DNA of 64,000 nucleotides from Patescibacteria group bacterium. GTDB taxonomy: Bacteria > Patescibacteriota > Microgenomatia > UBA8517. The stretch covers positions 27,522 to 91,521 of the forward strand of contig JBBTWD010000016.1 of NCBI GenBank assembly GCA_038062915.1, in the 5' to 3' direction. A model generated the notes under the pieces. The model did not search any database. It had not been told where the DNA came from and saw only the letters and a program-made list of their open reading frames with translations. Of the stretch, positions 480 through 26,871 are shown piece after piece (the first letter of the stretch is position 1; each line of letters begins with the position of its first letter). A program made the translations under genes and the position numbers.

Positions 480-1591
480 ATAACTCCCCAGAGGTTAACA
501 ACTACTCCAATAAAAAGTAGTATCCAATGATATTTTTTCAAACCCACTTTCTCGATGCCTTTAATGGTCAAAAGTGTCAAGAATGGATAAAAATCGACTG
601 CATACCTATAACCAAACTGGGTCCAACCTGTTCCACCTCTTAATGCAACTAGTATAAAGATCAAAATGACGGCTAGCCACAGCATCTTTGTGAGATTTTC
701 TTTAATTGGTGACCAAAACGCAAAAATGAAAACCGGGGTAGTTATCCAAATGGCAAGTCCGTACCACGAGGGTTGAATATATGGTGGGTGATTAAAAAAG
801 TTAGGAAGTTTTAGGAAGAGTATTTTTAAATGTTCTGGAATATAGGCGATATTTAGCATACCCTTAGAAAACCAGGGTTCAGAATAAATCCCAGGTATTA
901 GGAAGTATCCCTTATCTAAAACTGTCCCAAATCTTATAAAATTGTAGTAAAAATTAAACAATACAAAAGGAAGAATACCCAGTCCTAGATAAAAATATTT
1001 TTTAAACCAATCCTTATTAGCTAGTAGGTACAAAAACAAAGGAAGGGATAAAATTGTATGTAGACGTGATAAAAATGCGCTACCCAAAAAGATTCCAATG
1101 AGAAAAGAACGCCTTTTATTTAAACTTTCGTAAAGTGCAGCTGTAGTCAAAAAAGCGGCACTAACTTGCCCCAAATACCAAACCGAACCGGTTGCGGAAA
1201 GATACCAGACAATGCTTCCAAAGCCAATCATTATTCCAAAAAAAATAGCTAGTGGATAACTCTTTTTAAGTTTGTAAGAAATGGCCATTGTTAAAATAAT
1301 AATTCCAGCTCCCAAAATATGCGCTAGATATTGTTGTTCAAAGTTTTTTCCGAAGAAATAGACAAAAGGAAATGATAAAATTGCTGGCATAGGCGGCTGG
1401 ATTACATAGAACCTGCCTCCTGGCCCGGGAACCAGTTCAGATAACCAGTGGGGATTTTCACTTAGGTAGTATTTACCCTGCAGAAACGAACTGGAAAGTC
1501 GGGTAAAATAATCGTAAGGGGTTTTTCCTGCGGAAGTTAAATAATAAACAATGAGAGAAAAGACAAAAGCTAAAATAAAAAGTTTTTTCAT
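446..1591 (-). CDS. polytopic membrane protein, divergent paralog of the downstream GT-C glycosyltransferase
   Basis: 381 aa with many TM segments. N-terminus (MKKLFILAFVFSLIVYYLTSAGKTP) parallels the downstream gene N-terminus (MGKFLILAFILPLAIYLKTLLPGVGF) but lacks the D.GE/GHPxGYP signature. Confidence 0.45.
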   Translation of the reverse strand: MKKLFILAFVFSLIVYYLTSAGKTPYDYFTRLSSSFLQGKYYLSENPHWLSELVPGPGGRFYVIQPPMPAILSFPFVYFFGKNFEQQYLAHILGAGIIILTMAISYKLKKSYPLAIFFGIMIGFGSIVWYLSATGSVWYLGQVSAAFLTTAALYESLNKRRSFLIGIFLGSAFLSRLHTILSLPLFLYLLANKDWFKKYFYLGLGILPFVLFNFYYNFIRFGTVLDKGYFLIPGIYSEPWFSKGMLNIAYIPEHLKILFLKLPNFFNHPPYIQPSWYGLAIWITTPVFIFAFWSPIKENLTKMLWLAVILIFILVALRGGTGWTQFGYRYAVDFYPFLTLLTIKGIEKVGLKKYHWILLFIGVVVNLWGVIWINKFGWVSF

Positions 1592-3956: not shown

Positions 3957-4361
3957 TTATTTTTCGCACTTGAGGATTCTGTCCCATCTTTTACATTGCT
4001 GATTGGTGAAACACCTCTTAAATCGTGTGGAGCATGAACCCCCTCCACAGGGATTATCCGCGTCACACTTGGTATGATTTCCGCCGCCACCCCCTCCGTC
4101 ATCGCTGGGTTCATAGCAACAAACAAGATCGCCTACACTACAGTCATCCGTCCTCCTTTTTTTATCTGGATGTCTACACTCAGGTTCAGACACACAATCG
4201 CCTCGTAATTGCAAACAAGTATCCCCCGCTGCTTTTTCTCGGATGTCTTGGGACTGCTTGACCAGAAGTACGCCGGCGACGATGGCGCCGACCAAAAAAA
4301 TAAGACTAACCAACTGCCAGGGCTTTTTATTTTCCCTTTTTCCTTTAAAAATTCTAAACAT
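3957..4361 (-). CDS. small membrane-anchored cysteine-rich extracytoplasmic protein
   Basis: 134 aa. N-terminal TM anchor, a poly-Gly stretch, and 15+ Cys in C..C spacing (CDADNPCGGGSCSTRFKRCFTNQQCKRW). Confidence 0.4.
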   Translation of the reverse strand: MFRIFKGKRENKKPWQLVSLIFLVGAIVAGVLLVKQSQDIREKAAGDTCLQLRGDCVSEPECRHPDKKRRTDDCSVGDLVCCYEPSDDGGGGGGNHTKCDADNPCGGGSCSTRFKRCFTNQQCKRWDRILKCEK

Positions 4362-4391
4362 GCTTACGTATAAACGCTATTACAAATTAAA

Positions 4392-4931
4392 TTAAATTGC
4401 AAGTAGCAGTGAGCCCATTATGACGAGTATTCCAAGTCCTGCTCCAAATACTGTTGGCCAGCTGGTTCCAGAGTTTGGAAGAGATGGCTGTGTTGGTGTT
4501 TGGGCCGAGGCACCAGCACATGTACAGTCAGTTTCTGCTACACACGAGGCGTTTCGGCAGAATCCCTGGTAGCAAATAAGATCACTCCCGCAGTTACTAT
4601 TGCTCCCACATGTTCCTCCGCAGGAATTTGGAGTACCGGGAGGTGAAGTTGGGGATTCAGTTGGCGTTGATGTTGCGGTACTGGTTGCCGTAGAAGTGGC
4701 GGTCGATGTTGCGGTTGCCGTGGCTGTAGCTGTAGCTGTTGATGTCGCACCAATCGTAAATGACAATGAGCAATTATTTGTTTCTGCAGCCCTTGGTTTA
4801 CTAGATGGTACATTTGGAGCCACCGGCTGTGCTCTCAATTGGTAAAGCCTGATAGCGGTAAAAATAGCAACTCCAGCTAGAACTAGAGTTATGATTATTA
4901 TTATTCCGGTTACAAATTTAGATTTTTTCAT
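4392..4931 (-). CDS. membrane-anchored protein with Thr/Ser/Ala-rich repeat linker and Cys-rich knot-like domain; C-terminal LPNSG + hydrophobic tail
   Basis: 179 aa. N-terminal TM, TATATATATSTATSTATSTATSTPTESPTSPP linker, CGGTCGSNSNCGSDLICYQGFCRNASC, and a C-terminus of SLPNSGTSW + 20 hydrophobic residues. Confidence 0.45.
   Translation of the reverse strand: MKKSKFVTGIIIIITLVLAGVAIFTAIRLYQLRAQPVAPNVPSSKPRAAETNNCSLSFTIGATSTATATATATATSTATSTATSTATSTPTESPTSPPGTPNSCGGTCGSNSNCGSDLICYQGFCRNASCVAETDCTCAGASAQTPTQPSLPNSGTSWPTVFGAGLGILVIMGSLLLAI
4660..4760 (-). repeat. short in-frame tandem codon repeats (GCxACx units) encoding the (T-A/S-T-A) linker
   Basis: Plus-strand gcggtNgccgtNgNtgtagctgt periodicity is visible directly. 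Confidence 0.7.
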
Positions 4932-4932
4932 A

Positions 4933-5796
4933 TTATTTCCATTGATTTAATATTTTAACTTGTGCTGAAATGTTAAATGTTGTTGTTCCTGCCGGAATTG
5001 TATAAAGATCACAAAATTCATTCTTGCCCCCGCCCGGCCTTTTACCTATCGTTTCCGGCCTTGTGGTTCCATTAACAGTGAACCTTGCGGCTGTAAATTG
5101 AACTCGATCTTGTGCTGGGGTAGTAGTTCCAGTTGCACAGAAATTAACTTGGTTATTAGCTTTGAGGCTAGAAAGCTGAGCTACACTTAGTTGCGTCCAT
5201 GTTGGAGAATAGGCTTTAATATTTTGACAACTAGCGGTGGGAGTGCCATCACCATCATTTACAACACATCTACCACACTTGTCACCAGAAAGAGGTATCC
5301 ATTTACATTTATCTGCCTTTTCTATAGTACATTCCCGTTCGGCAGTTGCGCAGTCTGTTGCCCCAGATTCAGAACAAGTTTCTTCGTATGCTTTTTCTGA
5401 AACACTTTGTTTTTGTTGGGTCAAGATTACTCCTCCGGCGATGCCGCCAATTAATAAAAATAATCCCAATATTGTTGCGATGATTTTTCCTCCGCCGAAT
5501 TTTTTCTTTGGTGGTGGGGAAACCATCATTGAGGACACGTCGTCTAGTGGTGCAGCTGTTCCACCACTTTCACTGGCGATTGGAGACTGGAGATTGGAGA
5601 CTGGCTGCGAGTCTTCAGTTGGCATAGATGAAATATCTGAAGTATCTGCCATTTGAAAGTCAGGGACAGTTATAACTGGATTATCGTCAACTGGGGGAAC
5701 TACCGGAGTTTGAACCGGATCTGTTTGAGTTGGGTCCAACTTCGCTGAAGCTCCGCTGGATAAATCAGATTGATTGGGCATGTTTATAGGTAACAA
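4933..5796 (-). CDS. bitopic protein: Pro/Ser-rich disordered N-terminal region, single TM, Cys-rich extracytoplasmic domain
   Basis: 287 aa. KKKFGGGKIIATILGLFLLIGGIAGGVIL TM at about residue 110. 14 Cys in the C-terminal half. Internal 12-bp tandem repeat (gattggagactg x2) at 5561-5590. Confidence 0.4.
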   Translation of the reverse strand: MLPINMPNQSDLSSGASAKLDPTQTDPVQTPVVPPVDDNPVITVPDFQMADTSDISSMPTEDSQPVSNLQSPIASESGGTAAPLDDVSSMMVSPPPKKKFGGGKIIATILGLFLLIGGIAGGVILTQQKQSVSEKAYEETCSESGATDCATAERECTIEKADKCKWIPLSGDKCGRCVVNDGDGTPTASCQNIKAYSPTWTQLSVAQLSSLKANNQVNFCATGTTTPAQDRVQFTAARFTVNGTTRPETIGKRPGGGKNEFCDLYTIPAGTTTFNISAQVKILNQWK

Positions 5797-7075
5797 AAGA
5801 CAGCGCCATAACGCCTATACCCAGAATAGAGAAAAGAATGGTCGGAGTCAAGTTACCAGTTTGAGGAATAGGCGCTGGGCTTGCAGTTACTTTTGGACTA
5901 GACGTTGGTTTAGCATTTGACGAGGCGGTGGGAGTTGGGGTTGCAGTTGTGGTCTCTCCAGAACCAGATGCCTCAAAGGCCGGAGCTTCACCCGCTTGAA
6001 CAACAAAATTTCTAGTTAGTTTTCTGGTTATTCCGGTTATATCTTTCCAGGAAATAGTAATTTTATGAACTCCAGGACTTAAATTTTCCGGTGGATTCCA
6101 ATTCCAAGATCCGGCAGTGCCAATAGTGACGGATGCTGTTATGGGATTTTCAGACTCGACAGTTATTGTTAATATAGTTCCTTTTGGCCCGTCACCAAAA
6201 AATTCTGGTTCGGTGCTAGTTACCACCTCTCCATCATCTAAACTCTCAAGGGTTACACTTTGAGCTGGTCCAGAAACGGGGACATTGTCGGCTACGGCGA
6301 ACTTGGATTTTTCTTCTGAATTTTCAGGAAGATCGACTTCGGCATTAGGTGTTCCTCCAGATGTTGATATTGGAAGGCTTCGAAAATCATGTGTTTGCCC
6401 AAGTACCATGGGTGGGGCGGGTTTAGCAGATTGTGGAAAAATTTGAGCGGTTGAAACATCCCCAGTTCCTGTCTCCACAAAAATTTCAACTAAGGTTTGC
6501 GCCTCGTTGATTTCTAGCAAGTTTTTTAAATCTTGAGTTCTTGTAGCCCCTAACTGAAAAACATAATTGCCGGTAGGAGAGGTTAATGTTGAGAGTATAT
6601 ATCCTTGAATATTTGCATAAACTAAGGCATTTTTGATTGTTTCCCCAGTTGAACTTATTACCGATCCTGATATAAGCACAGAATTTTCGCTAACATTTAA
6701 AGCAGATCCTGTTTTTGTTTTCCAGGGAATCCCATTGTTGTCAAACAGTATTCCTCCTGAATTTATTTTATAGGAGTATTCAGTTTCAGCCTTAAGATCG
6801 TTTAGTGCCACACTGTGAGTGAAAGACTTTTTGCTATCTTGAACCAATTTGTTTTGACCCCAAAGCACAAACCCGACAGACTCCTTGTCTGTAACCCAAG
6901 AGATTGTCAGACTAGTATCTGAAATATTAGAAACCCGTATATTTTTAGGCATTGCCTCTCCGGATGCTCCTAATCTAAAAATAGCTCTCGAATTAACTAA
7001 TATAACTCCAAAAAGTGTTCCAACAATTAAAACTATTAGTCCGAGTATTGTTGGAAGTTTATTTTTTTTAATCAT
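5765..7075 (-). CDS. surface protein with N-terminal signal-anchor, fibronectin type III-like domain, Ig-like/beta-sandwich region, Thr/Pro/Ser-rich stalk and C-terminal IPQTG sorting-signal-like motif
   Basis: The ORF track starts at a TTG at 7093, but the ATG at 7075-7073 (MIKKNKLPTILGLIVLIVG) is the likely start. IRVSNISDTSLTISWVT...YSYKI resembles FN3. The C-terminus is PIPQTGN-LTPTILFSILGIGVMALSFV-TYKHAQSI (motif + TM + basic tail). Confidence 0.5.
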   Translation of the reverse strand: MIKKNKLPTILGLIVLIVGTLFGVILVNSRAIFRLGASGEAMPKNIRVSNISDTSLTISWVTDKESVGFVLWGQNKLVQDSKKSFTHSVALNDLKAETEYSYKINSGGILFDNNGIPWKTKTGSALNVSENSVLISGSVISSTGETIKNALVYANIQGYILSTLTSPTGNYVFQLGATRTQDLKNLLEINEAQTLVEIFVETGTGDVSTAQIFPQSAKPAPPMVLGQTHDFRSLPISTSGGTPNAEVDLPENSEEKSKFAVADNVPVSGPAQSVTLESLDDGEVVTSTEPEFFGDGPKGTILTITVESENPITASVTIGTAGSWNWNPPENLSPGVHKITISWKDITGITRKLTRNFVVQAGEAPAFEASGSGETTTATPTPTASSNAKPTSSPKVTASPAPIPQTGNLTPTILFSILGIGVMALSFVTYKHAQSI

Positions 7076-7140
7076 AAGCGTAGCTTGTGACAAACTTTGT
7101 TTATCATAAGCGTAGCTTGTGACAAACTTTGTTTATCATG
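7071..7140. repeat. perfect 32-bp tandem direct repeat x2 plus 6-bp partial third copy
   Basis: atcataagcgtagcttgtgacaaactttgttt occurs at 7071-7102 and 7103-7134, then atcatg. The first copy overlaps the ATG (read on minus strand) of the FN3 gene. Confidence 0.9.
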
Positions 7141-8814: not shown

Positions 8815-10476
8815 TTGATAATGAAATCAATCAAAAACCTATTTAATTCACAACAAAAGACTGTTCTTTCCGCCGCGACAATTATTATGTTTATGGTTGT
8901 TGCCAGTCGAATCCTGGGTCTTGTTCGTCAAAGAGTTTTGGCAAGTTTTTTTACGCCAGATGAACTTTCACTTTTCTTTGCCGCGTTTCGCTTACCCGAT
9001 TTGGTTTTTGAGGTATTAGTTTTTGGGACCTTTTCAGCCGCATTTATCCCAGTTTTTACAGGACTTATCAAAAAAAACAAAAATGAGGCTTGGAAGGTGG
9101 CTACAACAGTTGTCAATATTGGATTTTTAGTTTTTTTAATTTTGGCAGGATTTTTAATCTTTTTTTCATCTCATCTTTATGGTGTTTTAGCTCCTGGATT
9201 CACAAATGGACAACAAGTAACAATAGTAAGGCTTACTAGAATTCTGTTTGCGGCCCAAGGCTTTTTTGTTATTAGTTACGTTTTAACTGCAGTTTTAGAA
9301 TCATCACGGCGTTTTTTAATTCCTGCGGTCGCTCCACTTTTTTATAACCTAGGAATCATTTTTGGTACACTAATTTTTGCTCCCAAGTTTCATCTTATGG
9401 CCCCAGTCATCGGGGTTATAGTGGGCTCTGCTCTGCATCTTTTAATTCAACTCCCCCTTTCTTTAAAACTTGGTTTCAGATTTAGGTCAAAAATTTCCAT
9501 TGATGATAATGTAAGAAAAATTGGAAGACTTGCACTCCCCAGAATTATTGAAGTTTCAGTGATTCAGGTTATGAAAACGGTCGAGCTTTTTTTGGCTTCA
9601 TTAATTTCAACTGCTTCATATACTTATTTTACTCTAGGCAACACCATTCAACTTATTCCAGTTGGACTTTTTGGGACATCGATAGCCAAAGCATCTCTAC
9701 CCACACTATCAAGACAGGTGGGCCAGCCAGGCGTTTTCAGGAAAACACTTTTTGATGCTCTATATCAGATGGTTTTTTTAATTTTGCCAGTTTCGGCCAC
9801 ATTGATAGTTTTAAGAATCCCCATAGTAAGGCTTATTTTTGGGACAGATATGTTTGATTGGGAAGCAACGGTCCAAACCGGAATGGTTGTTTCGGCATTC
9901 GCCGTTGGAGTTATCTTCCAAGCTGGTGCAAGTCTACTTTCAAGGGCATTTTATGCCATGCACGATACAAAGACTCCCGTTATTATTTCTATAATCTCAT
10001 TAATTATTAATATTAGCTTGGCATTTATTTTTGTCAAAGTTTTTAGTCTTCCCTCTTGGTCTCTGGCACTTGCCTACTCTATCGGAGTTTTTATACAAGG
10101 CGCCACTCTTTTTATAGTAATCAATAATCGTCTTAAAAATGGTCCGATTTGGAAACTTCTTTCCCCACTTTTTAAATCAGTATTTTCATCCGTAGTTTCA
10201 GGTGTCGTGATGTATTTTATGCTCAAGTTTTTTGATAGATGGGTTTGGATAAAAAATTCGCCGGCCAATCTTCCTTTTGAGAGGTTTGTTTTGGATACAA
10301 GATATGCCGGAAACCTTTTGGCATTAACCATGTTGGTAATTTTATCGGGCGCCTTGGCTTACTTTTTAACTTCTTATTTACTAAAATCTCAAGAATTAAC
10401 TAATTTTTTAAACTTGTTTAAACGATTTTTTATTTCAAGAAAAATAGAACCCATTTCAGACCTTGACAAGGGTTAG
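8815..10476 (+). CDS. murJ: lipid II flippase MurJ (MviN)
   Basis: 553 aa with 14 TM segments. ILGLVRQRVLASFFT N-terminal motif. Confidence 0.8.
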   Translation: MIMKSIKNLFNSQQKTVLSAATIIMFMVVASRILGLVRQRVLASFFTPDELSLFFAAFRLPDLVFEVLVFGTFSAAFIPVFTGLIKKNKNEAWKVATTVVNIGFLVFLILAGFLIFFSSHLYGVLAPGFTNGQQVTIVRLTRILFAAQGFFVISYVLTAVLESSRRFLIPAVAPLFYNLGIIFGTLIFAPKFHLMAPVIGVIVGSALHLLIQLPLSLKLGFRFRSKISIDDNVRKIGRLALPRIIEVSVIQVMKTVELFLASLISTASYTYFTLGNTIQLIPVGLFGTSIAKASLPTLSRQVGQPGVFRKTLFDALYQMVFLILPVSATLIVLRIPIVRLIFGTDMFDWEATVQTGMVVSAFAVGVIFQAGASLLSRAFYAMHDTKTPVIISIISLIINISLAFIFVKVFSLPSWSLALAYSIGVFIQGATLFIVINNRLKNGPIWKLLSPLFKSVFSSVVSGVVMYFMLKFFDRWVWIKNSPANLPFERFVLDTRYAGNLLALTMLVILSGALAYFLTSYLLKSQELTNFLNLFKRFFISRKIEPISDLDKG

Positions 10477-10491
10477 CACTCGAGATAAGAT
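10463..10491 (+). promoter_or_regulatory. sigma70-like promoter (TTGACA-17-TAAGAT) for hrcA operon
   Basis: TTGACA at 10463-10468 and TAAGAT at 10486-10491. Overlaps CIRCE. Confidence 0.45.
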
Positions 10492-10499
10492 ACTGCTAA
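10473..10499 (+). promoter_or_regulatory. CIRCE operator (HrcA binding site)
   Basis: TTAGCACTC-gagataaga-TACTGCTAA versus consensus TTAGCACTC-N9-GAGTGCTAA. Lies 3 nt upstream of the hrcA ATG. Confidence 0.75.
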
Positions 10500-14421: not shown

Positions 14422-14448
14422 TTAGCATTATTAATTTATGAGTGCCAA
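14422..14448 (+). promoter_or_regulatory. degenerate CIRCE-like inverted repeat overlapping dnaJ start codon
   Basis: TTAGCATTA-ttaatttat-GAGTGCCAA (arms 7/9 and 8/9 versus consensus). The ATG of dnaJ is at 14438. Confidence 0.4.
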
Positions 14449-16455: not shown

Positions 16456-17790
16456 ATGAAAAAAAGAAATCCAATAGTTGTAGTTTTGGGGCATGTAGAT
16501 CACGGTAAGACTACGCTTCTTGATGCAATTCGAAAAACTAGTGTGGCTTCACGAGAGGCAGGAGGAATTACGCAAAGTATCGGGGCTTCTGTTGTAAACG
16601 GAATTTGTTTTATTGACACACCGGGGCACGCCGCCTTTGGTAAAATGAGGGGGCGTGGGACAAGGGTTGCAGATATAGCCATCTTGGTTGTTTCAGCAGA
16701 TGATGGGATTAAACCACAAACAAAAGAAGCGCTTGAGATGATTAAGGAAGCTAAAATTCCATTTATTGTTGCTCTAACAAAGATTGATATAGTAGGAGTT
16801 CGTCTAGAGATAGTTCGTGGCCAGCTTGAAAAAGAAGGGCTACTCTTTGAAGGTAGAGAAGGAGAGGTTCCACTCGTTTCACTTTCTGCCAAAACAGGAG
16901 AAGGGTTAAAAAACCTTCTTGAAACAATCACACTTCTTTCTGAAGTTAATAATGTTTCAGGCGACCTCAATGCTCCACTTGAAGCGGTTATCATCGAGTC
17001 GTTTAAAGATGCAAGAGGCCCGGTTACCAATATCATAGTCAGAAACGGGAATATTAAAGTTGGGGATCAAATTGATATAGATAACTTATCAGGAAAAGTA
17101 AGGGGAATCTTTAATGATAAAGGAGAATCTGTCCGAGAAGTCCTACCCGGTGAACCATCTCAAGTTATTGGTTTAACCCAAAAACAAGATGTTGGTCCAA
17201 GAAAAGTTTTGGGTGATGCTAGACGGTTGGCAGAAGATGAACTGCCAATTGTATTAAAAGCAGCAAATTCAGGGATACTTGAGGCAATTATTGCCTCACT
17301 ACCCCCTAAAGTTATAGTTGTCGACTATGGAATTGGAGACGTTTTAGGTAATGATATTCTAACTGCAAAAGTAGGTAATGCCTATGTTTTTGCCTTTGGA
17401 ACAAAAATTCCAAATAACATTGCAAAATTAGCAGAAACAGAAGGAGTAAGGGTTAAAAAATTTGATATCATTTATGAGTTAATTTCAGAAATTGAAGAAA
17501 CCTTAAAAGGTGGAAAAGTTCAAATATTAGGTAAGGCTCAAGTTTTAGCAAGTTTTCCTTTTAATAAAAAAAGCGTTGCTGGGTGTAGAGTTTTAACCGG
17601 TAGATTTAATAAGGGTGATCGCTTAATTTTAACCAGAGACGAAAAAGAAATTGGAAAAGCAAAAGCCCTGACAATTAAAAAACAGAAAGTAGACACAACT
17701 TCGGTTGGGGCTAATGAGGAATTTGGAGTAATCTTAGAACCCCAACTTGATTTCCAAGTTAATGATGTGTTACTATCGGTCACAAAATGA
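16456..17790 (+). CDS. infB: translation initiation factor IF-2 (minimal, 444 aa, no N-terminal extension)
   Basis: [17 protein letters not shown] and TKID G-domain motifs. Begins directly at the G domain. Confidence 0.85.
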   Translation: MKKRNPIVVVLGHVDHGKTTLLDAIRKTSVASREAGGITQSIGASVVNGICFIDTPGHAAFGKMRGRGTRVADIAILVVSADDGIKPQTKEALEMIKEAKIPFIVALTKIDIVGVRLEIVRGQLEKEGLLFEGREGEVPLVSLSAKTGEGLKNLLETITLLSEVNNVSGDLNAPLEAVIIESFKDARGPVTNIIVRNGNIKVGDQIDIDNLSGKVRGIFNDKGESVREVLPGEPSQVIGLTQKQDVGPRKVLGDARRLAEDELPIVLKAANSGILEAIIASLPPKVIVVDYGIGDVLGNDILTAKVGNAYVFAFGTKIPNNIAKLAETEGVRVKKFDIIYELISEIEETLKGGKVQILGKAQVLASFPFNKKSVAGCRVLTGRFNKGDRLILTRDEKEIGKAKALTIKKQKVDTTSVGANEEFGVILEPQLDFQVNDVLLSVTK

Positions 17791-18671
17791 ACGATTCTTT
17801 TTCTTCTTTGATTAGCTCTGCCAATTCTATTCTGGTGCTTTTGCCAAGTAAACCGTATTTCGATCAGGTAGCAGCAGGGCTTTCACTCTATCTCACTTTA
17901 AAAGATCAGAAACCAACTACAATTTTTTCATCTAGTTCGATGACCGTGGGCTTTAATAGATTAATTGGTGTAGACAAAATTTCTTCAAACCTTGGAGATA
18001 AAAATTTGGTGATTAAATTTACCAACTATGATGGAAATGGAATTGACAAAGTAAAAGCGGATTTAGAAAATGGAGAATTTATTTTGACAGTTATACCCAA
18101 ACCAGGCTTTAATTCTCCAAAAAAGGAGCAACTATCCCTATCAACTGCTGGGGTTTCTGCTGATTTATTAATCCTTATAGGGGGAGCAAGTGATTCTCAT
18201 TTTCCGGAATTGGCTGACAAGCAGTTGCAAGGAGTCAAAATCCTACATATTGGCACACGCGTTTTGACGAGTGATCGTGGGATTATGTCATTTGCAAAAC
18301 CTGGTTCTTCAGTCTCTGAACTTATTGCCTCCACAATTAAAGAAAATGGGATTCCAATGGATTCTGACTCTGCAACAAACCTAATTATGGGAATTGAGGA
18401 AGGGAGTAGTCATTTTGAAAGTAGCGAGGTAACTCCTGAAACATTTGAAATTTTTGCCCACCTTCTTCGAAATGGGGGTCAAAGAATGCCAAAAACAATA
18501 CCAGAGCCGAAGAGTTTCCCTATGGGAAGTATTCCGACTCAGCCTTTCGGACAAAAAGTATCACAAGTAGATCCGGTTTTAGAACAGATTGAGGCAAAAG
18601 AAGAGATTGTCGAGAATCCTCCACAAGATTGGTTACAACCAAAGATTTACAAAGGGACTAGCGTAAGTTAA
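17787..18671 (+). CDS. DHH/DHHA1-like (NrnA-like) protein with degenerate catalytic motifs
   Basis: 294 aa. In the infB-(rbfA)-nrnA-truB-rpsO-pnp neighbourhood. DxD appears as YFD and DHH as DSH, so it is probably inactive. Confidence 0.35.
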   Translation: MNDSFSSLISSANSILVLLPSKPYFDQVAAGLSLYLTLKDQKPTTIFSSSSMTVGFNRLIGVDKISSNLGDKNLVIKFTNYDGNGIDKVKADLENGEFILTVIPKPGFNSPKKEQLSLSTAGVSADLLILIGGASDSHFPELADKQLQGVKILHIGTRVLTSDRGIMSFAKPGSSVSELIASTIKENGIPMDSDSATNLIMGIEEGSSHFESSEVTPETFEIFAHLLRNGGQRMPKTIPEPKSFPMGSIPTQPFGQKVSQVDPVLEQIEAKEEIVENPPQDWLQPKIYKGTSVS

Positions 18672-19017: not shown

Positions 19018-21371
19018 AAAAAATAGAAAAATCAATTGAACTTGGAGGTAGAACCCTAACTTTAACTACAGGTGAACTTGCCCAGCAAGCCGCCGGCGCT
19101 GTTATGGCCAGACATGGCGATACTGTAGTTTTGGCTACTGTCGCTTCAGCGCCACTTAAAATTGAGCTCGACTATTTCCCTTTAACTTTAGAATATCAAG
19201 AAAAGCTTTACGCCGGCGGGCGAATCAAAGGTAGTCGCTGGGTTAAAAGAGAAGGCAGACCCACAGATGAAGAAATTCTTTCAGCTCGCCTGATAGACCG
19301 TTCAATTCGTCCACTTTTCCCTAAAACTTATAAACGTGAAGTCCAAGTAATTATCACGGTTCTTTCGGTAGATATGGAATCTGATCCATCAATTTTAAGT
19401 GCAATCGCGGCTTCAGCTGCAATTCATATATCAAATCTCCCCTGGAAGGGTCCTGTAGCTCCGCTTACCGTAGGACTTGTTGATGGAAAGTATTTAGTCA
19501 ATCCGACAGCAAAAGATTTAGAAGCTAGCTCGATGGACCTAACTGTTTCTTGCACAAAAGACGCCATTTTAATGGTCGAAGCTGGCGCACGCGAAGTAAC
19601 TGAAGAAGAAATTATTAAAGGTGTTGAGTTTGCAGTCAAAGAGTCAAAAGCAGTTCTAAAGTTAATTGAGGATATGGCTAAAGAGGTTGGGGTAGAAAGG
19701 GAAGTTTATAAAGAAGAAAAGCCTTCGGCCGAACTTGAATCACAAGTTAAAAAATTAGTTGGTAACAAAATTGAAGATTTAGTTAAAAACATGGCCTTTC
19801 ATGAAGGGCCAACTGGGGAATATGCGGAATTTGTTGATGCAGTTAAAAGTAACTTCGAGAAGGATGAAGATAAAAAGTTTGTTCTCGATATTGTTGACCA
19901 TTTAAAGAAAGACTTTATTCGTGAACAAATTCTCAAAAAAGGAAAACGACCAGATGGCAGAAAATTAACAGAGATTAGAGAACTATCAGGGCAAGTTGGA
20001 TATCTGCCTAGAGTTCATGGTTCGGCACTCTTTAAAAGAGGCCAAACCCATGTTTTATCAGTTGCTACTCTTGGAGCTTCCAAATTGGGTCAACTACTAG
20101 AGTCAGCCGAAGGAGAAGTTGAAAAACACTACATGCATCAGTACAACATGGCTCCTTTTGCGAGTGGTGAAACAGGAAGAGTGGGGAATCCTGGTAGGCG
20201 AGAAATTGGCCATGGTGCACTAGCTGAAAGGGCCTTGATACCAGTTATTCCTTCAATCGAGGAATTTCCATACGCAATTCGAGTAGTTTCAGAAGTAATG
20301 AGTTCAAACGGTTCAACATCAATGGCTAGTGTTTGTGGCTCCACCCTTTCTTTAATGGATGCTGGAGTCCCTATAAAATCGCCTGTAGCTGGAATAGCCA
20401 TGGGGCTTATATTTGGAGATAAGGCCATGCCTGCCGGTAGGCAGGAGTATGCGGTTCTCTCTGACATTATGGGGATTGAAGATTTTAATGGGGATATGGA
20501 CTTTAAAGTGGCGGGAACTTCTAAAGGAATCACGGCGCTCCAGTTAGATGTAAAAACATTAAATTTAACCAGTGAAATTTTACGTGAGGCACTCATACAA
20601 TCAAAAGATGCAAGAGCCAAGGTGATGAAGTCGATAACCGACATATTGAAAGCTCCGAGAGCTGAAGTTTCAGTATTTGCACCAAAGATCAAGGTTGTTA
20701 AGATTCCAGCAGACAGAATAGGAGAGTTTGTAGGACCTGGTGGAAAAGCTATCAAGAAATTAATAGCAGATACTGGAGCACAAATTGAAGTTAATGATGA
20801 TGGTGGAGTAAGTATTTCTGCAATTGACGAAAGTGCAATAGCTAAAGCTGTAACTTGGGTGGAAGGATTTGCAAAAGTAGTTGGGGCAGGTGAAGTTTAC
20901 GAAGGAACAGTAGCTAGAGTCTTAAATTTTGGAGCTTTTGTAGAAATCTTGCCCGGAAAAGAAGGGATGGTTCATGTTAGTGACATGGGTCAAGAGGGAT
21001 TTGTAGCAACAGCAGAAAGTGTCGTTAAAGTTGGAGATAAAATTCAAGTTCGAGTCAAAGAAATTGACGATATGGGCAGAATTAATTTGTCAATGAATTT
21101 AGATCCTGCAATGGATGAAAAAATCAGGGTTGAAAGATCCCACTTCGCTCCTCGCGGAGCTTCGAGGGACAATGCAAGAGGTGGGTTTGGTGGAGGAAGA
21201 TCATTTGGCGGTGGAGCAAGATCTGGTGGATACCAAAGAAGCGGAGGATTTTCCCCCAGAGGACGATCCTCTTTTGGAGGAAACAGAGATGGTCGTGGTG
21301 GGTCGGGTGGTCCCCACTTCCCAACTTCAAGATTGGTAGATGACAGCAGTAAAAAAGACTTCGGGAGATAA
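19014..21371 (+). CDS. pnp: polynucleotide phosphorylase with C-terminal RGG/Gly-Arg-rich tail
   Basis: Two RNase PH domains, KH and S1, then about 85 aa of [42 protein letters not shown]. Confidence 0.95.
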
Positions 21372-21380
21372 ACAACCTCT

Positions 21381-21408
21381 TTACAATCGTCTAATAATCG
21401 TCTATAAT
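21381..21408 (+). promoter_or_regulatory. sigma70-like promoter TTACAA-16-TATAAT with embedded direct repeat aatcgtcta x2, upstream of fic
   Basis: TTACAA at 21381-21386 and TATAAT at 21403-21408. aatcgtctaataatcgtcta fills the spacer. Confidence 0.4.
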
Positions 21409-21448
21409 ACGGCTAGTAGTGCCAAGCCTCGCTTAATATACGTCTAGT

Positions 21449-22498
21449 ATGTTTAATCCTAAATTTGCCATTACCAACAAACTCCTTTCAAATATTAAAG
21501 AAATAGGATCAATTATCACCGAACTTAACAATAGGAAATTTTCTAACCTAGTTCTGGTGGAAATGGAAAGGCTTGCTCGCGAAATCTCTTCGCATGCCTC
21601 AACTAGTATTGAAGGTAATCCACTACCATTAACCGATGTTAAACGACTGATTAAAACTGACCCGAAAAATATTCGTGATAGTGAAAAAGAAGTCCTAAAT
21701 TATAATAACGTCTTAAAACAAATAAACAAAAATCTTAAAAACAATAACATTCATTTTTCCCTAGATTTGATCTTAAAGATACAAAAAGGAGTTGTTGATG
21801 ATCTGCTACCAGATTACGACACAGGGGTGTTACGAAAGCGGCCAGTGTTTGTAAATAACCCGTCATTAAGAAAGGTAGTTTATCTACCTCCAGATCATTC
21901 TAATGTCCCCCTATTAATAGATGAACTGATTATGTTTATAAAAAGCAAGAGTGATGAAATAGACCCAATAATATTGGCGGGAATATTTCATAAACAATTT
22001 GTTTTAATCCATCCGTTTATAGATGGAAATGGAAGAACGACAAGACTACTCACAAAGATTTTACTTGCGGAAATGGGTCTGAATACTTTTAATTTGTTTA
22101 GTTTTGAAAATTATTACAATAAAAATGTAACAAGATATTTTGAATTTGTTGGAGAAATTGGTAATTACTATGAATTAAGTAAAAATGTTGATTTTACGAA
22201 GTGGCTTGAATATTTTACCGATGGAATTATTGATGAACTTTTAAGGGTTAAAAAGATACTTAGTATTCAAGTTGATCCTAAAAATGTAGTTTATAGTCAT
22301 GACCAAAAGGTGTTGGATTTTGTTGAAAAAAACGGATTTATTAAAAATAGTGATTACGCCAAGTTAATTAAGCGCTCAAAAGCTATGCGAGTAATCAATC
22401 TTAATAGACTAATTGAAATGGGTTTAATTGAGCGGAAAGGAAAAGGTAAGGCAACTTTTTATGTTTTAAAAAAGACTTTGGGAGATAAATTTCACTAA
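21449..22498 (+). CDS. Fic/DOC family protein (AMPylation-type active site) with C-terminal winged-helix region
   Basis: HPFIDGNGRTTR matches the Fic motif HxFx(D/E)GNGRxxR. 349 aa. Confidence 0.8.
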   Translation: MFNPKFAITNKLLSNIKEIGSIITELNNRKFSNLVLVEMERLAREISSHASTSIEGNPLPLTDVKRLIKTDPKNIRDSEKEVLNYNNVLKQINKNLKNNNIHFSLDLILKIQKGVVDDLLPDYDTGVLRKRPVFVNNPSLRKVVYLPPDHSNVPLLIDELIMFIKSKSDEIDPIILAGIFHKQFVLIHPFIDGNGRTTRLLTKILLAEMGLNTFNLFSFENYYNKNVTRYFEFVGEIGNYYELSKNVDFTKWLEYFTDGIIDELLRVKKILSIQVDPKNVVYSHDQKVLDFVEKNGFIKNSDYAKLIKRSKAMRVINLNRLIEMGLIERKGKGKATFYVLKKTLGDKFH

Positions 22499-22517
22499 TT
22501 AATATATAATCGGCCAA

Positions 22518-23066
22518 GTGAACGATAATTTAAAACAAAAAATTAGAATATTTCAGAATATCCTTAATAAAATTCCGGAATTTAGATATATTGGCGATCC
22601 AATCTTAAGAAAAAGAACTAAGAAAGTTAGTTTGTCTGAAGGAATTAAGATAGGTAATAAATTAGGTAAAGTTTTGATTAAATATAGAAAAATTGCAGGA
22701 TTTGGTAGAGGTCTGGCTGCCCCCCAAATTGGAATTGATAAATCTGTCTTTGTAAGCTTTGTTGATGACAAGCTTCAAATTTTTATTAATCCTGTAATAA
22801 CCAAAGTTTCAAAAACTAAAAATTACTTCAGGGAACTTTGTTTAAGCACGGGATTTATATGGGGAGATGTTAAGAGATCGGAATGGATGGAGCTTAAATG
22901 GACCAATGAGGCAGGAAAACTTCAAAAACAAAAGTTTGATAGTTTTATGGCAAGACTTATTCAACATGAATATGCACATTTGTTAGGGGAAACAAATTTA
23001 GACGCAGCTGAAAACAAAACTATTGAATTTGCCAAAAATCCACTTGAAGAAAAACTTCGTAGATAA
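22518..23066 (+). CDS. def: peptide deformylase
   Basis: GRGLAAPQIG, ELCLS and QHEYAHL correspond to PDF motifs 1-3. Confidence 0.8.
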   Translation: MNDNLKQKIRIFQNILNKIPEFRYIGDPILRKRTKKVSLSEGIKIGNKLGKVLIKYRKIAGFGRGLAAPQIGIDKSVFVSFVDDKLQIFINPVITKVSKTKNYFRELCLSTGFIWGDVKRSEWMELKWTNEAGKLQKQKFDSFMARLIQHEYAHLLGETNLDAAENKTIEFAKNPLEEKLRR

Positions 23067-23146
23067 GACACCTATTTATTATTAATTAAACTTCCACGAA
23101 TTAATTATATCACCATGTTTCAACTTCCTGTTATACTCTAATTGAT

Positions 23147-24193
23147 ATGGATTCTGCTGCCCAGGAAATTACCACTTTAGTTGATAGAGTTAAAAAAGCT
23201 TCAATGCCAGATAAGCTTCGTGAATTAGTACTCGTACGACTTAATCAACTTTCAAAATTAACCTCGTCTGCAACTTTTTTACCTGAATTTGATCGAATGG
23301 AAAAGTATATTGATTGGATTTGTGATCTTCCCTGGGACAAAAGAACGCAGGATATCCTTGACCTCGAGAATGCCAAGAAAGTTTTGGATGCACATCACTA
23401 TGGACTAGACGACATCAAAACTAGAGTTTTGGAGTATACGAGTGTGATGAAACTTAAACAAGAAAAAGGAGAGAGTAAGGACATATATCGTGCTCCAATT
23501 CTTTGTTTTGTGGGTTTAGTCGGAACAGGGAAAACTACGATTGCATTTTCAATTGCAGAAGCCCTAGGCCGGCCCATTGCTCGCATTCCTTTTGGAGGGA
23601 TGGGAGATCCACTAGATCTTCGAGGTCAGAGTAGAATGCACCCAGAAGCCGAACCGGGTAAAATTATTAAGGCACTGCGGGATTGCCAAAGCAGAAATCC
23701 TGTAATACTTCTTGATGAAATTGATAGGGTAACTGATCAAGGAAGGGCTTCTATAATGGGAGTTTTGGTTGAGCTACTTGATCCTAAACAAAACCACGCG
23801 TTTGTCGATCACTATATCGATTTTCCGTTTGATTTATCTGAAGCCTTGTTTATAGCTACAGCCAATAACACTACAAGTATAGCAACTGCCGTTATGGATA
23901 GATTAGAACCCATTGGGATGCCAAGCTATACCGATCAAGAAAAAATTATTATTGGACAGAAATATATAATGCCATCTGCGATGAAAGCGTCAGGACTTCC
24001 TAATGGAAGTTTGACCATTGATGATGACGTTTGGGCGAGTATAGTAAGGCCCCTTGGATATGATGCTGGAATTCGTACACTGGAAAGAAACATTGATGGA
24101 GTTGTAAGGAAAGTTGCTAAAATGATAGTAGAGGGAAAATCAACTTCAGCCCATATCACTTCTGCCAACGTTAAAGAATTTTTACCACAATAG
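23147..24193 (+). CDS. Lon-derived AAA+ ATPase module without LON N-domain and without S16 protease domain
   Basis: Lon pre-AAA helix (MPDKLRE...YIDWICDLPW), Walker A GLVGTGKTT, Walker B ILLDEIDR, sensor ATAN, and MDRLEPI..YTDQEK. The ORF stops where the Lon protease domain would start. Confidence 0.7.
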   Translation: MDSAAQEITTLVDRVKKASMPDKLRELVLVRLNQLSKLTSSATFLPEFDRMEKYIDWICDLPWDKRTQDILDLENAKKVLDAHHYGLDDIKTRVLEYTSVMKLKQEKGESKDIYRAPILCFVGLVGTGKTTIAFSIAEALGRPIARIPFGGMGDPLDLRGQSRMHPEAEPGKIIKALRDCQSRNPVILLDEIDRVTDQGRASIMGVLVELLDPKQNHAFVDHYIDFPFDLSEALFIATANNTTSIATAVMDRLEPIGMPSYTDQEKIIIGQKYIMPSAMKASGLPNGSLTIDDDVWASIVRPLGYDAGIRTLERNIDGVVRKVAKMIVEGKSTSAHITSANVKEFLPQ

Positions 24194-24207
24194 TATAAAA
24201 TAGGCTA

Positions 24208-24654
24208 GTGAAAATACTTATTATCTCTGATTCTCATGGTAATATTGCCAACATTAAGCATGTAATGGGTTTTGCAACCAACATAAATGCAAATGCTGTA
24301 ATTCACTGTGGGGATTGGGATAATTTAGAATCAGTTAAAACGGTTTTATCTTTCGGCATTCCCCTATATTCAGTTCTAGGAAATGCTGATACTGATCCGG
24401 GCTTTAAATTTAAAGAATTTTTAGAGGTCAATATTGATAATAGAAAAATTGGGGTTACACATAAACCAAGTGGTGTTAAGAAATATTTTGAAGGTAAAAA
24501 AATGGACATTATTTTTTGTGGACATTTACATTCGAAGGATGAAAGAATGTTAAATGAGGTAAGAGTTGCCCGTCCTGGAGCAATCCTAAATGGAATTAAT
24601 TTTGCGGTCTATGAAACTAAAGCAAATACAGTAGAATTTTTTCAAGATGAGTAA
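24208..24654 (+). CDS. metallophosphoesterase (YfcE/MJ0936-like)
   Basis: ISDSHGN, GDWDN, GNAD and GHLH motifs. 148 aa. Confidence 0.7.
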   Translation: MKILIISDSHGNIANIKHVMGFATNINANAVIHCGDWDNLESVKTVLSFGIPLYSVLGNADTDPGFKFKEFLEVNIDNRKIGVTHKPSGVKKYFEGKKMDIIFCGHLHSKDERMLNEVRVARPGAILNGINFAVYETKANTVEFFQDE

Positions 24655-25219
24655 ATACGAATTACTTCATAAACTAAAAGAAAAAATGGAAAAAGATAAT
24701 TCATTGCCTCTTAAAAAAGGCGCTAATAAATTAGTTTTTGGATCGGGAAATACTGAAGCAAAAGTTTTACTAATTGGAGAGGGACCAGGAAGAAATGAGG
24801 ATGTTCAGGGATTACCATTTGTTGGTCAAGCTGGAAAGTTATTAGATAAATTACTTTTGTTGGCAGGTTTAGAAAGAAAAAAAGTTTTTGTTACAAACGT
24901 GGTTCACCACAGACCTCCTGAAAATCGTGACCCATTTCCCAGTGAAATAGAAGCCTATGGCAAGTACCTTGACAAAATTCTGGAAATTATTAAACCCAAA
25001 TTAATCATAACTTTAGGTAGATTTTCCATGGCAAAATTTTTACCAAACGTTTACATAAGTTCAGTGCATGGTAAAAAGTTTGAGTTAATTGTTAATAGTA
25101 AAAAGTTAATTGTTATCCCCATGTATCATCCGGCGGCATCGTTACGCAATGGCAATGTTTTAGAACAAGAAAAGAAAGACTTCTTACATTTAAAAGAAAT
25201 ATTGAGTAAAATAAGATAA
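24647..25219 (+). CDS. uracil-DNA glycosylase family 4-like, cysteine-free (no Fe-S ligands)
   Basis: GEGPGRNED, PFVGQAGKLL and HPAA motifs. The protein has no Cys. Confidence 0.65.
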   Translation: MSKYELLHKLKEKMEKDNSLPLKKGANKLVFGSGNTEAKVLLIGEGPGRNEDVQGLPFVGQAGKLLDKLLLLAGLERKKVFVTNVVHHRPPENRDPFPSEIEAYGKYLDKILEIIKPKLIITLGRFSMAKFLPNVYISSVHGKKFELIVNSKKLIVIPMYHPAASLRNGNVLEQEKKDFLHLKEILSKIR

Positions 25220-26871
25220 TGGCTTTAAAGTTTATCGCTCTTTCCGGGACTGTCGGTGTAACCGAGAATCTCTATGTTTACGAAACAGATAGAGACATGA
25301 TGGTTGTTGATTGTGGTGTGGGATTTCCTGATCTTGAAATGCCTGGGGTAGAACTTGTTCTTCCCGATTTTTCTTACATTATTAAAAATAAAAACAAGTT
25401 ACGGGGAACAATCCTTTCTCAAGGACATGATGATCACGTTGGGGCCCTACCATTTCTTCTAAAGGAAGTGAATACTCCTATCTGGTGTACGGCTCTTGTC
25501 ACTGAATTTTTAAAAGTTAAGTTTAAAGATTATGGAGTTAAAAATTATCAAATTAATACATTTAACCCAGAACGAGATGTTTTTGAGGTGGGATCATTTA
25601 AAATTAATTCATTTAGGGTCACTCACTCGGTTCCCGACACTGTTGGTTTTGCAATCGATACCCCAGAAGGGAGAATCTTCCATGTGGCAGAGCATAAAAT
25701 GGACCAAACTTCAGTTGATGGGATGAGTTTTGACATTCTAAAAGCAAAAAAATTTGCGGATGAAAAAGAAGCGCTTTGTTTAATGTCTGATTGTTTGGGA
25801 TCAAATGACCCGGGATATACTCTAAGTGGAGTTTCTATTGAAGAAAATTTGCTAAAAATCGCAAAAAATGCTGGGCGCGGGGCCATTTATATGACTGCCA
25901 TCTCCTCAAGTATCGGAAGATTTCAGCAAATGATAAATGTTGCCACGAAGATTCATAGAAAAATTGTTCTTGTTGGCCGTTCCATTCAAAGTAAAGTTGA
26001 AATTGCTTATAACCTTGGTTATTTAAAATATTTACCAAGCCAAATAATCGATCTTAAAGAATCTCAAAAGTACGACGCGAGCCAAATCGTGTACATTATT
26101 GCCGGTTGTTATGGGCAAGTCGGAAGTTCTGTTTACAGACTTGCTCTAGGAGAACATGACAGAGTCAAAGCTAATCTAGGTGATACATTTATATTCTCGG
26201 CCGATCCCGGGCCAGCATACTCTAAAGAAGCCCAAGATTTAATTGTTGATGAATTAATTGATATTGGAGTAGATGTTCATTATTACGACTTAAATGAAGG
26301 ACTTCATGTTTCAGGTCATGGTAGCCAGGAGGACATTATAGAGTTATTTAAAATTGTCAAACCAAAATATTTTATTCCAACAGGTGGAACAATTAGATAT
26401 ATGTCTTCGTATCAAAAACTAGTTGTTGGTATGGGCAAACCTAAAGAAAATGTTTTTAGATTAAAGCCAGGTGAGAGTGTAATTTTTGAAAATGGAAATG
26501 CAAGGCGAGGAGAAACAATTAAAACAAGAGAGGTTATGGTCCACGGCCTTGGAATCGGAGATATTGGAAAGGTTGTTCTTGAAGATAGAACCGCACTGGG
26601 TAAAGAGGGGATTGTGGCCGTAACGCTTCTTGTTGGCAGAAACGGTATGGTTAGCAAAAAACCAGAAATGACTAGTCGGGGATTTGTTTTTGAACAAAAA
26701 TACCGTGGAATATTGGACGATGCGGCAAATAATTTACTGGACAATTTAAAAAGCAAAAAGGCTAAAAATATAGCGGAGTTAAAAAGTGTAACGGAGCATT
26801 TTTTAGAAAAATACTTTTTTGATAAAACTGGCCGCCGCCCCATGGTACTCCCCGTTGTAATTGAAGTATAA
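25219..26871 (+). CDS. rnj: ribonuclease J (metallo-beta-lactamase/beta-CASP)
   Basis: HGHDDHVGALPFLL and beta-CASP motifs. 550 aa. Confidence 0.85.
   Translation: MALKFIALSGTVGVTENLYVYETDRDMMVVDCGVGFPDLEMPGVELVLPDFSYIIKNKNKLRGTILSQGHDDHVGALPFLLKEVNTPIWCTALVTEFLKVKFKDYGVKNYQINTFNPERDVFEVGSFKINSFRVTHSVPDTVGFAIDTPEGRIFHVAEHKMDQTSVDGMSFDILKAKKFADEKEALCLMSDCLGSNDPGYTLSGVSIEENLLKIAKNAGRGAIYMTAISSSIGRFQQMINVATKIHRKIVLVGRSIQSKVEIAYNLGYLKYLPSQIIDLKESQKYDASQIVYIIAGCYGQVGSSVYRLALGEHDRVKANLGDTFIFSADPGPAYSKEAQDLIVDELIDIGVDVHYYDLNEGLHVSGHGSQEDIIELFKIVKPKYFIPTGGTIRYMSSYQKLVVGMGKPKENVFRLKPGESVIFENGNARRGETIKTREVMVHGLGIGDIGKVVLEDRTALGKEGIVAVTLLVGRNGMVSKKPEMTSRGFVFEQKYRGILDDAANNLLDNLKSKKAKNIAELKSVTEHFLEKYFFDKTGRRPMVLPVVIEV

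Follow-up and report, generated by a model that had tools for sequence, protein, structure and literature searches.

In current classifications every Lon polypeptide consists of an ATPase domain followed by a protease domain (PMC9569914, which also lists the Lon subfamilies, LonC included). LonA proteins (E. coli Lon, B. subtilis LonA and human LONP1; MEROPS S16) carry an N-terminal substrate-binding domain and an S16 Ser-Lys protease domain, together with a three-helix bundle, an AAA+ alpha/beta domain and a lid. LonC (Meiothermus taiwanensis type) is a Lon lineage that has abandoned one of the two activities: the protease is kept, while the AAA-like domain is ATPase-dead. Here we analyse a gene with the mirror-image arrangement, in which the ATPase is kept and there is no protease. 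The gene lies in a 64,000-nucleotide (64-kb) stretch of DNA, hereafter the window, from a Patescibacteria group bacterium (GTDB lineage Bacteria; Patescibacteriota; Microgenomatia; UBA8517), a member of the Candidate Phyla Radiation (CPR) (GenBank assembly GCA_038062915.1, contig JBBTWD010000016.1, positions 27,522 to 91,521 of the forward strand). All positions given below are those of the window.

Two further systems are relevant for comparison. EcLon(235-584) is a limited-proteolysis fragment that forms an open helical hexamer in the crystal (PDB 6N2I). Its boundaries almost coincide with those of the CPR protein. The latter, however, is encoded by a natural, conserved gene and has rebuilt pore loops, whereas 6N2I is a laboratory fragment of a protease and its loops are canonical. 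ClpB/Hsp104 and other stand-alone AAA+ chaperones are HCLR-clade rings that act without an attached peptidase, and the LonA HI(CC) region resembles the ClpB H1/M region (PMC6722904). However, ClpB combines two AAA+ tiers with an M domain, and its pore-loop tyrosines are conserved; the CPR protein has a single tier, retains only a remnant of the helical domain and lacks a conserved aromatic residue. On balance, the sequence comparisons described below suggest that the gene encodes a stand-alone, LonA-descended ring ATPase which probably works as a non-proteolytic, chaperone-like remodeller or assembly factor, and not as one half of a split Lon.

Domain composition and boundaries of the Lon-type ATPase

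The gene and its N-terminal region are located as follows:

23147..24193, + strand: stand-alone LonA-type AAA+ ATPase gene (ATG start, 348 aa plus stop; from the list of open reading frames, ORFs)
23147..23464, + strand: N-terminal helical region, residues 1-106, equivalent to the three-helix bundle (C-terminal part of the LonA HI(CC) domain)

An earlier sequence-only reading had described the product as a 348-aa Lon-derived AAA+ module without N-domain and without protease domain. Pfam, TIGR00763, the alignment and Foldseek agree with this description, and the ORFs at 23147..24193 and 24208..24654 are present as it described them. The protein consists of a LonA-derived three-helix bundle, an AAA+ alpha/beta domain and a Lon lid, and nothing else. 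The Pfam scan revealed AAA (PF00004, residues 119-254, 59 bits) and Lon_lid (PF22667, residues 280-332, 44.5 bits), while the LON N-domain (PF02190) and Lon_C (PF05362, at E<=0.01) were not detected in the 348 residues. The NCBIfam model TIGR00763 ('endopeptidase La') was covered only from position 252 to 572 of 795 (322.6 bits against a cut-off of 608.05), indicating that the long coiled-coil helix of the LonA N-terminal part is also missing. The score with NF008053 was 238.6 against a cut-off of 891.

The part shared with LonA (three-helix bundle, AAA+ alpha/beta domain and lid) is 35-43% identical. All the top phmmer matches in the PDB were LonA chains (E 1e-67 to 1e-78), with B. subtilis Lon 3m6a in first place (E 9e-78) and Thermus, yeast and human LONP1, Meiothermus, Yersinia and E. 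coli Lon among the others. The AlphaFold2 model, built with 20 family sequences, has a mean pLDDT of 90.5 and a pTM of 0.83; in Foldseek it matched LonA/LONP1 chains with TM scores of 0.82-0.88 and 6N2I with TMq 0.86 and TMt 0.88 (query residues 1-342 aligned to chain residues 4-335). NCBIfam, phmmer and Foldseek thus all gave Lon, and not another AAA+ family, as the best match. Nevertheless, the protein should not be filed as a Lon protease: it has no S16 domain and no N-domain, it reaches half of the curated TIGR00763 cut-off, and pore loop 1 carries His165-Pro166 in place of Tyr-Val/Ile.

Both ends of the protein fall close to known boundaries. The N-terminal region is modelled as helices 2-17, 22-37, 44-60, 73-83 and 88-106, and its alignment to E. 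coli Lon begins at residue 244, a start shared with the EcLon(235-584) fragment. The C-terminal end aligns at E. coli Lon residue ~581, and the boundary between the AAA+ and protease (P) domains lies about four residues further on, at 584/585. The sequence-only reading had placed this end exactly where S16 begins; the end is indeed within a few residues of the AAA+/P boundary. No in-frame continuation into a protease domain was found, as the ORF ends at the linker and tblastn revealed no Lon_C-like sequence downstream of the gene in any frame. Eight full-length LonA queries used in tblastn against the entire 64-kb window matched only 23132-24190, and no N-domain or S16 sequence was found there, in agreement with the earlier statement that no S16 gene is adjacent. 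The 799-aa ORF at 1551-3950 was considered as a full-length Lon and rejected, since it encodes a PMT-type glycosyltransferase.

Protease-less relatives in CPR bacteria

More than 120 sequence clusters from NCBI, JGI, ENA and Logan assemblies are 83-100% identical to the window protein, and all of them are exactly 348 aa long. The sources of identical or near-identical proteins assign them to 'Patescibacteria group bacterium' and 'Candidatus Microgenomates bacterium'. An exhaustive search of cluster representatives also gave protease-less relatives at 40-56% identity. These are 348-669 aa long and end a few residues past the lid, except P0160 and P0172, with tails of about 75 and 195 aa respectively, neither of which contains a Pfam domain. 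Several family members (P0129, P0137, P0139, P0140 and P0146 among them) have N-terminal extensions of 50-330 aa, visibly P/Q/T-rich and of low complexity in P0129, P0137, P0140 and P0146, while the window protein has no extension. No Pfam domain was found in the N-terminal extensions of P0139 and P0146, the two that were scanned.

Next to these relatives we surveyed gene loci, using one genome per species (51 CPR loci and 29 canonical Lon loci of other phyla). The ORF ended 0-8 residues past the lid in 51/51 CPR loci, whereas all 29 non-CPR loci had a tail of 190-290 aa where LonA has S16. The CPR loci are titled Shapiro-, Ames-, Woese-, Levy-, Davies-, Roizman- and Gottesmanbacteria and WWE3, with a few titled Saccharibacteria or Nomurabacteria; some of these metagenome-assembled genomes (MAGs) are evidently mislabelled.

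A neighbour-joining tree of 193 trimmed modules, the AAA+ phylogeny that the sequence-only reading had proposed, recovered the 66 protease-less sequences as one bipartition (bootstrap 96/100). On this tree the protease-less proteins are a single-origin CPR family covering Microgenomates lineages, WWE3 and some others. Comparison of the window gene with three relatives gave a proportion of non-synonymous differences (pN) of 0.11-0.19 and a proportion of synonymous differences (pS) of 0.75-0.84 (pN/pS about 0.15); synonymous distances (dS) were saturated, so only the proportions are meaningful. Judged by these proportions, purifying selection acts on the protease-less family.

These results bear on whether the gene is a pseudogene or an assembly artefact, that is, a lon truncated by a frameshift or a premature stop. 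The truncated architecture, taken by itself, would fit such an origin, and the sequence-only reading had suggested checking the end of the gene for a frameshift. However, neither the position of the stop nor the length varies across more than 120 clusters from independent assemblies or across 51 species, pN/pS is low, a complete phosphoesterase gene begins 14 bp past the stop, and nothing resembling Lon_C follows the gene. The comparative data (clusters, loci, tree, and pN versus pS) therefore exclude a frameshift, a pseudogene and a recent truncation, and we regard an artefactual origin as extremely improbable.

A split Lon is also improbable, if less so. In this case the ATPase would work with an S16 protease encoded elsewhere, or it would co-assemble with a canonical Lon as a modulating subunit. 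The protein does end inside the AAA+/P linker, and the C-terminal [FY]-[LI]-P-x-[WY] of 28/66 members could in principle dock a partner. Against this, tblastn with the S16 segments of 12 LonA proteins, plus N-terminal LonA segments, gave no match to either domain in the 692 kb of CPR sequence collected from 58 related loci or, as stated above, in the window. The pore loops needed for feeding a protease are unconserved, and the nearest canonical LonA modules with a named source come from Anaerolineales and Clostridiales, not from CPR bacteria. The suggestion that the gene is a remnant of a split Lon is at odds with the monophyly of the family, the signs of purifying selection, the exact 348-aa length of over 120 clusters and the stop shared by all 51 CPR loci.

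Twenty-eight of the 66 members end in Trp or Tyr, typically as N-[VIL]-K-x-[FY]-[LI]-P-x-[WY]; the clade of the window protein ends one residue short (KEFLPQ, 24173-24190), and another subgroup ends in LPDQGPLS. This tail may be what is left of the AAA+/P linker, or it may serve for docking.

In the exhaustive search, the top bit scores went to proteins of 900-1700 aa in which two to four Lon-type AAA+ modules stand in tandem ahead of one Lon_C domain (P0121-P0128 and others). Pore loops or Walker A motifs are degenerate in several of the additional modules, but these multi-module Lons retain the C-terminal S16 domain, unlike the CPR family, and those included in the tree (P0164, P0178, P0198, P0213 and P0218) are placed outside the protease-less clade.

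No model dedicated to the family exists in Pfam (2025) or NCBIfam (June 2026). Its members are labelled 'AAA family ATPase' (NCBI), 'hypothetical protein' or, misleadingly, 'ATP-dependent Lon protease' (JGI); given the JGI label, CPR proteostasis inventories may overcount proteases. Full-text literature searches, which did not cover subscription journals, yielded no account of a Lon without protease or of any Lon from CPR bacteria. The CPR family is a clear and widespread natural exception to the rule that the ATPase is followed by a protease, a Lon motor retained solely for its ATPase. In minimal genomes the genes that remain are often important, and the protease-less ATPase is probably important in its CPR hosts.

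ATPase site and pore loops

The positions of the ATPase motifs, with residues numbered as in the window protein, are the following:

23513..23539, + strand: Walker A, GLVGTGKTT, residues 123-131 (G123, G126, G128, K129 and T130 invariant in 66/66 family members)
23702..23725, + strand: Walker B, VILLDEID, residues 186-193 (D190 and E191 invariant in 66/66)
23864..23902, + strand: sensor-1 Asn240 through arginine-finger Arg252 (N240 and R252 invariant in 66/66)
24074..24076, + strand: sensor-2 Arg310 in the lid (invariant in 66/66)

The sequence-only reading had reported intact Walker A and B, sensor-1 and arginine finger. All were found, and K129, D190, E191, N240, R252 and R310 are invariant in the 66 family members. 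The window protein thus has the residues of the AAA+ HCLR clade (Walker A Lys, Walker B Asp-Glu, sensor-1 Asn, arginine finger and sensor-2 Arg), at positions equivalent to those of LonA; N240, R252 and R310 correspond to Asn473, Arg484 and Arg542 of EcLonA (PMC9569914). The surroundings of the site differ from LonA. Walker A is GL(V/A/Q)G(T/V)GKT(T) in the family and GPPGVGKTS in LonA, position 124 being Leu in 60/66 family members and Pro in 117/122 canonical LonA modules, and sensor-2 is preceded by RPLG(F/Y)D in the family versus xxYTRE in LonA. The proteins are mildly acidic (isoelectric point, pI, 5.8 in the window protein and a median of 5.9 in the family). As the ATPase site is strictly conserved, ATP turnover appears to be the selected activity.

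The pore loops were compared between the same 122 canonical LonA modules and 66 protease-less family members. Both loops are remodelled in the family:

23621..23659, + strand: remodelled pore loop 1, RGQSRMHPEAEPG, residues 159-171
23726..23761, + strand: remodelled pore loop 2, RVTDQGRASIMG, residues 194-205

The consensus of pore loop 1 is RGHRRTY[VI]GA[ML]PG in LonA and RGxS[RK]xxx[DE]AEPG in the family. Tyr occupies position 165 in 122/122 LonA modules, but only 20/66 family members have an aromatic residue there and most have His, Ser, Arg or Asn (His in the window protein). Position 166 is Val/Ile in 121/122 LonA modules and Pro in 41/66 family members (Pro in the window protein). The next changes introduce acidic residues: position 167 is Gly in 119/122 LonA modules versus Asp/Glu in 58/66 family members, and position 169 is Met/Leu in 114/122 versus Glu in 61/66 (Glu in the window protein at both positions). 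In pore loop 2, position 199 is Phe/Tyr/Trp in 86/122 LonA modules and Ala/Ser/Gly in the family (Gly in the window protein), and the Gly-Asp-Pro of positions 201-203, present in 120-122 of the 122 LonA modules, is not kept in the family (Ala-Ser-Ile in the window protein). This rebuilding of the pore loops is a feature that the sequence-only reading had overlooked.

The axial pore loops of AAA+ unfoldases grip and pull the substrate, as has been stated for Lon (PMC9569914). The lack of a conserved aromatic residue and the addition of acidic residues in these loops argue against a general Lon-style threading motor. The sequence-only reading had considered the protein an unfoldase or a regulator; the first of these roles became doubtful, because neither the Tyr-Val/Ile-Gly of pore loop 1 nor the aromatic residue of pore loop 2 is conserved.

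A non-canonical unfoldase or disaggregase, whose ring would thread polypeptides through the altered loops without a peptidase and release them unfolded, like ClpB or ClpX, is unlikely but is the strongest of the alternatives. All the ATPase and ring-communication residues are invariant, and the retained helical bundle is related to the ClpB H1/M region (PMC6722904). One subclade adjoins groES-groEL, and the aromatic residue at position 165 is retained in the 20 members counted above. However, this residue is unconserved in the family, the window protein included, and the hydrophobic residue that should follow it is most often Pro. Moreover, two acidic residues stand in place of Gly and Met/Leu, the aromatic residue of pore loop 2 is gone, and no heat-shock operator was found at the gene.

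Our preferred interpretation remains that of a non-proteolytic remodeller or assembly factor. Members of the CPR family have neither an S16 protease domain nor an N-terminal domain for substrate binding; strict constraint persists on the binding and hydrolysis of ATP and on the arginine finger that acts in trans. The position of one subclade beside groES-groEL also speaks for this interpretation. The protein is predicted to assemble into a Lon-like ring and to hydrolyse ATP, since the trans-acting arginine finger is invariant and the equivalent E. coli fragment packs as a hexamer. The Tyr-Val/Ile grip of pore loop 1 and the aromatic residue of pore loop 2 are replaced by a Pro- and Asp/Glu-containing loop, and the ring would therefore no longer be a general threading motor feeding a protease. 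ATP would instead be spent on a non-proteolytic job, the remodelling or assembly of particular clients. These clients might be basic, a speculation suggested by the acidic loops. The gene would be expressed as a housekeeping gene of the rpsO-pnp...rnj-ftsK block described below.

Some points weigh against this interpretation. The P domain and the N region of LonA contribute to oligomerisation, which makes a ring without them uncertain. The 20/66 members that retain Phe/Tyr at the pore-loop-1 position, usually followed by Pro, might still grip polypeptides to some extent. Finally, no CIRCE/HrcA element (CIRCE, controlling inverted repeat of chaperone expression) was found upstream of the ATPase gene in the window or in the 51 loci, the groES-adjacent subclade included.

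A broader scenario can be envisaged, in which an early CPR lineage turned Lon into a protease-independent AAA+ machine with acidic, Pro-containing pore loops and specific, probably basic clients, tied to the PNPase/RNase J/ribosome-biogenesis block. Taken as a whole it is doubtful. If true, it would define a previously unrecognised class of stand-alone bacterial AAA+ remodellers, and the 'Lon' calls in CPR metabolic reconstructions would be wrong. Protease-independent, chaperone-like activities of Lon have long been discussed, and the family bears on these; it is a natural experiment on the capabilities of a Lon AAA+ ring without N and P domains.

Genomic context in CPR loci and in the window

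The ATPase gene recurs in a frame with rpsO-pnp upstream and rnj (RNase J) and ftsK downstream. Of the 42 loci informative on the upstream side, 28 have pnp there in the same orientation, 19 of them within 500 bp; of the 39 informative on the downstream side, 28 have rnj, 12 of them within 300 bp. Even a member with only 40% identity has rpsO-pnp on one side and ftsK on the other, but additional genes intervene and rnj is missing. In one subclade, six loci (L024, L027, L032, L034, L036 and L043) are head-to-head with groES-groEL; a seventh, the short contig L030, shows the groES neighbour. In a third group of three loci, the gene is near SufS-like and VirB4-like genes.

This context raises the question of whether the protein is the ATPase partner of PNPase and RNase J in a degradosome-like assembly. 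The pnp and rnj frequencies are in favour, as is the persistence of the arrangement down to 40-50% protein identity and into WWE3. However, CPR genomes retain long syntenic blocks, which makes adjacency weak evidence; metallophosphoesterase, uracil-DNA glycosylase (UDG), fic, def and pilM-like genes are freely inserted between the members of the block, and the gene has different neighbours at 14 of the 42 loci whose upstream sequence is long enough. An acidic module (median pI as above) with acidic pore loops is also ill-suited to RNA binding, and to our knowledge no Lon-type ATPase is known in a degradosome. Such a partnership is quite unlikely. We rank the alternatives, by decreasing likelihood, as unfoldase, PNPase/RNase J partner, split Lon and artefact.

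Two more features of the window accompany the gene:

24208..24654, + strand: YfcE-like metallophosphoesterase gene (GTG start, 148 aa, 14 bp past the ATPase gene), an incidental neighbour
21380..21408, + strand: promoter-like site TTTACA-17-TATAAT, the best of the region (11/12 consensus positions), upstream of fic-def-ATPase-metallophosphoesterase-UDG-rnj

The metallophosphoesterase (N-terminus MKILIISDSHG) matches Metallophos_2 (PF12850) with 83.2 bits (cut-off 27) and reaches 53.5 bits with TIGR00040 YfcE (cut-off 56.25). The sequence-only reading had pointed out that it follows the ATPase gene, which is correct, but it was rejected as a functional partner. It is lineage-specific: only the closest relatives (L001-L005, L007 and L008) have it downstream, which amounts to 2 of the 39 loci whose downstream sequence extends for at least 3 kb. 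UDG is downstream in 16/39 loci.

The gene order in the window is hrcA, grpE, dnaK, dnaJ, nusA, infB, a gene for a 294-aa protein of unknown function, rpsO, pnp, fic, def and the ATPase gene, followed by metallophosphoesterase, UDG, rnj, ftsK, a gene for an HTH_25 protein and alaS (rpsO, pnp and alaS were named via labelled genes of related loci). From the ATPase gene onwards, genes overlap or are separated by gaps of no more than 14 bp. The promoter-like site is a consensus match only, and the number of such sites in the region is not above the shuffled expectation. No terminator-like site was found in 21300-25400. The 80-bp gap upstream of the ATPase gene contains no promoter-like site, only an AT-rich inverted repeat (23077-23109).

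The Fic-domain gene (21449-22498) matches the PADLOC single-gene defence model SoFic (155 bits), and the peptide deformylase gene def (22518-23066) is directly upstream of the ATPase gene, so that fic and def separate pnp from the ATPase gene. tblastn (E<=1e-5) located neither of them at the equivalent position of a related locus, and the pair looks like a lineage-specific insertion; local GC is low (0.341 over 22001-24000). A role of the ATPase in a defence system was considered and rejected, as PADLOC gives it only generic AAA+ matches of at most 21 bits (IetA, DolB and TRIP13) and its context is housekeeping.

CIRCE-like inverted repeats are present at 10473-10499 and 14422-14448, with 2 and 3 mismatches respectively to TTAGCACTC-N9-GAGTGCTAA (chance expectation 0.01). 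They are placed at the start of hrcA-grpE-dnaK and just upstream of dnaJ, which suggests a conserved HrcA heat-shock regulon in this CPR genome. Heat-shock (HrcA/CIRCE) control of the ATPase gene was rejected, because the CIRCE-like sites are found only at these two places.

A conserved protein of about 290-320 aa without Pfam match is encoded between infB and rpsO in the window (17787-18671), in L001 (5673-6641) and in most related loci; in many bacteria this interval holds rbfA and truB. The CPR-type block nusA-infB-rpsO-pnp-ATPase-rnj-ftsK was also found in MAG records titled 'uncultured Gammaproteobacteria', 'Pseudomonadales' and 'Candidatus Methanoperedens', and the organism names on records L006-L008, L010, L011, L017, L018 and others appear to be wrong.

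No tRNA, tmRNA or Rfam family at gathering threshold was detected across the 64 kb. The GC content of the window is about 0.34-0.45, genes beyond about 8.8 kb are almost all on the + strand, and the cumulative GC skew climbs steadily. GC reaches 0.454 at 4001-6000, compared to 0.36-0.39 on the flanks. The minus-strand ORFs 3957-4361, 4392-4931 and 4933-5796 have no Pfam match, and the next ORF (5765-7093) contains Ig-like and fn3 domains.

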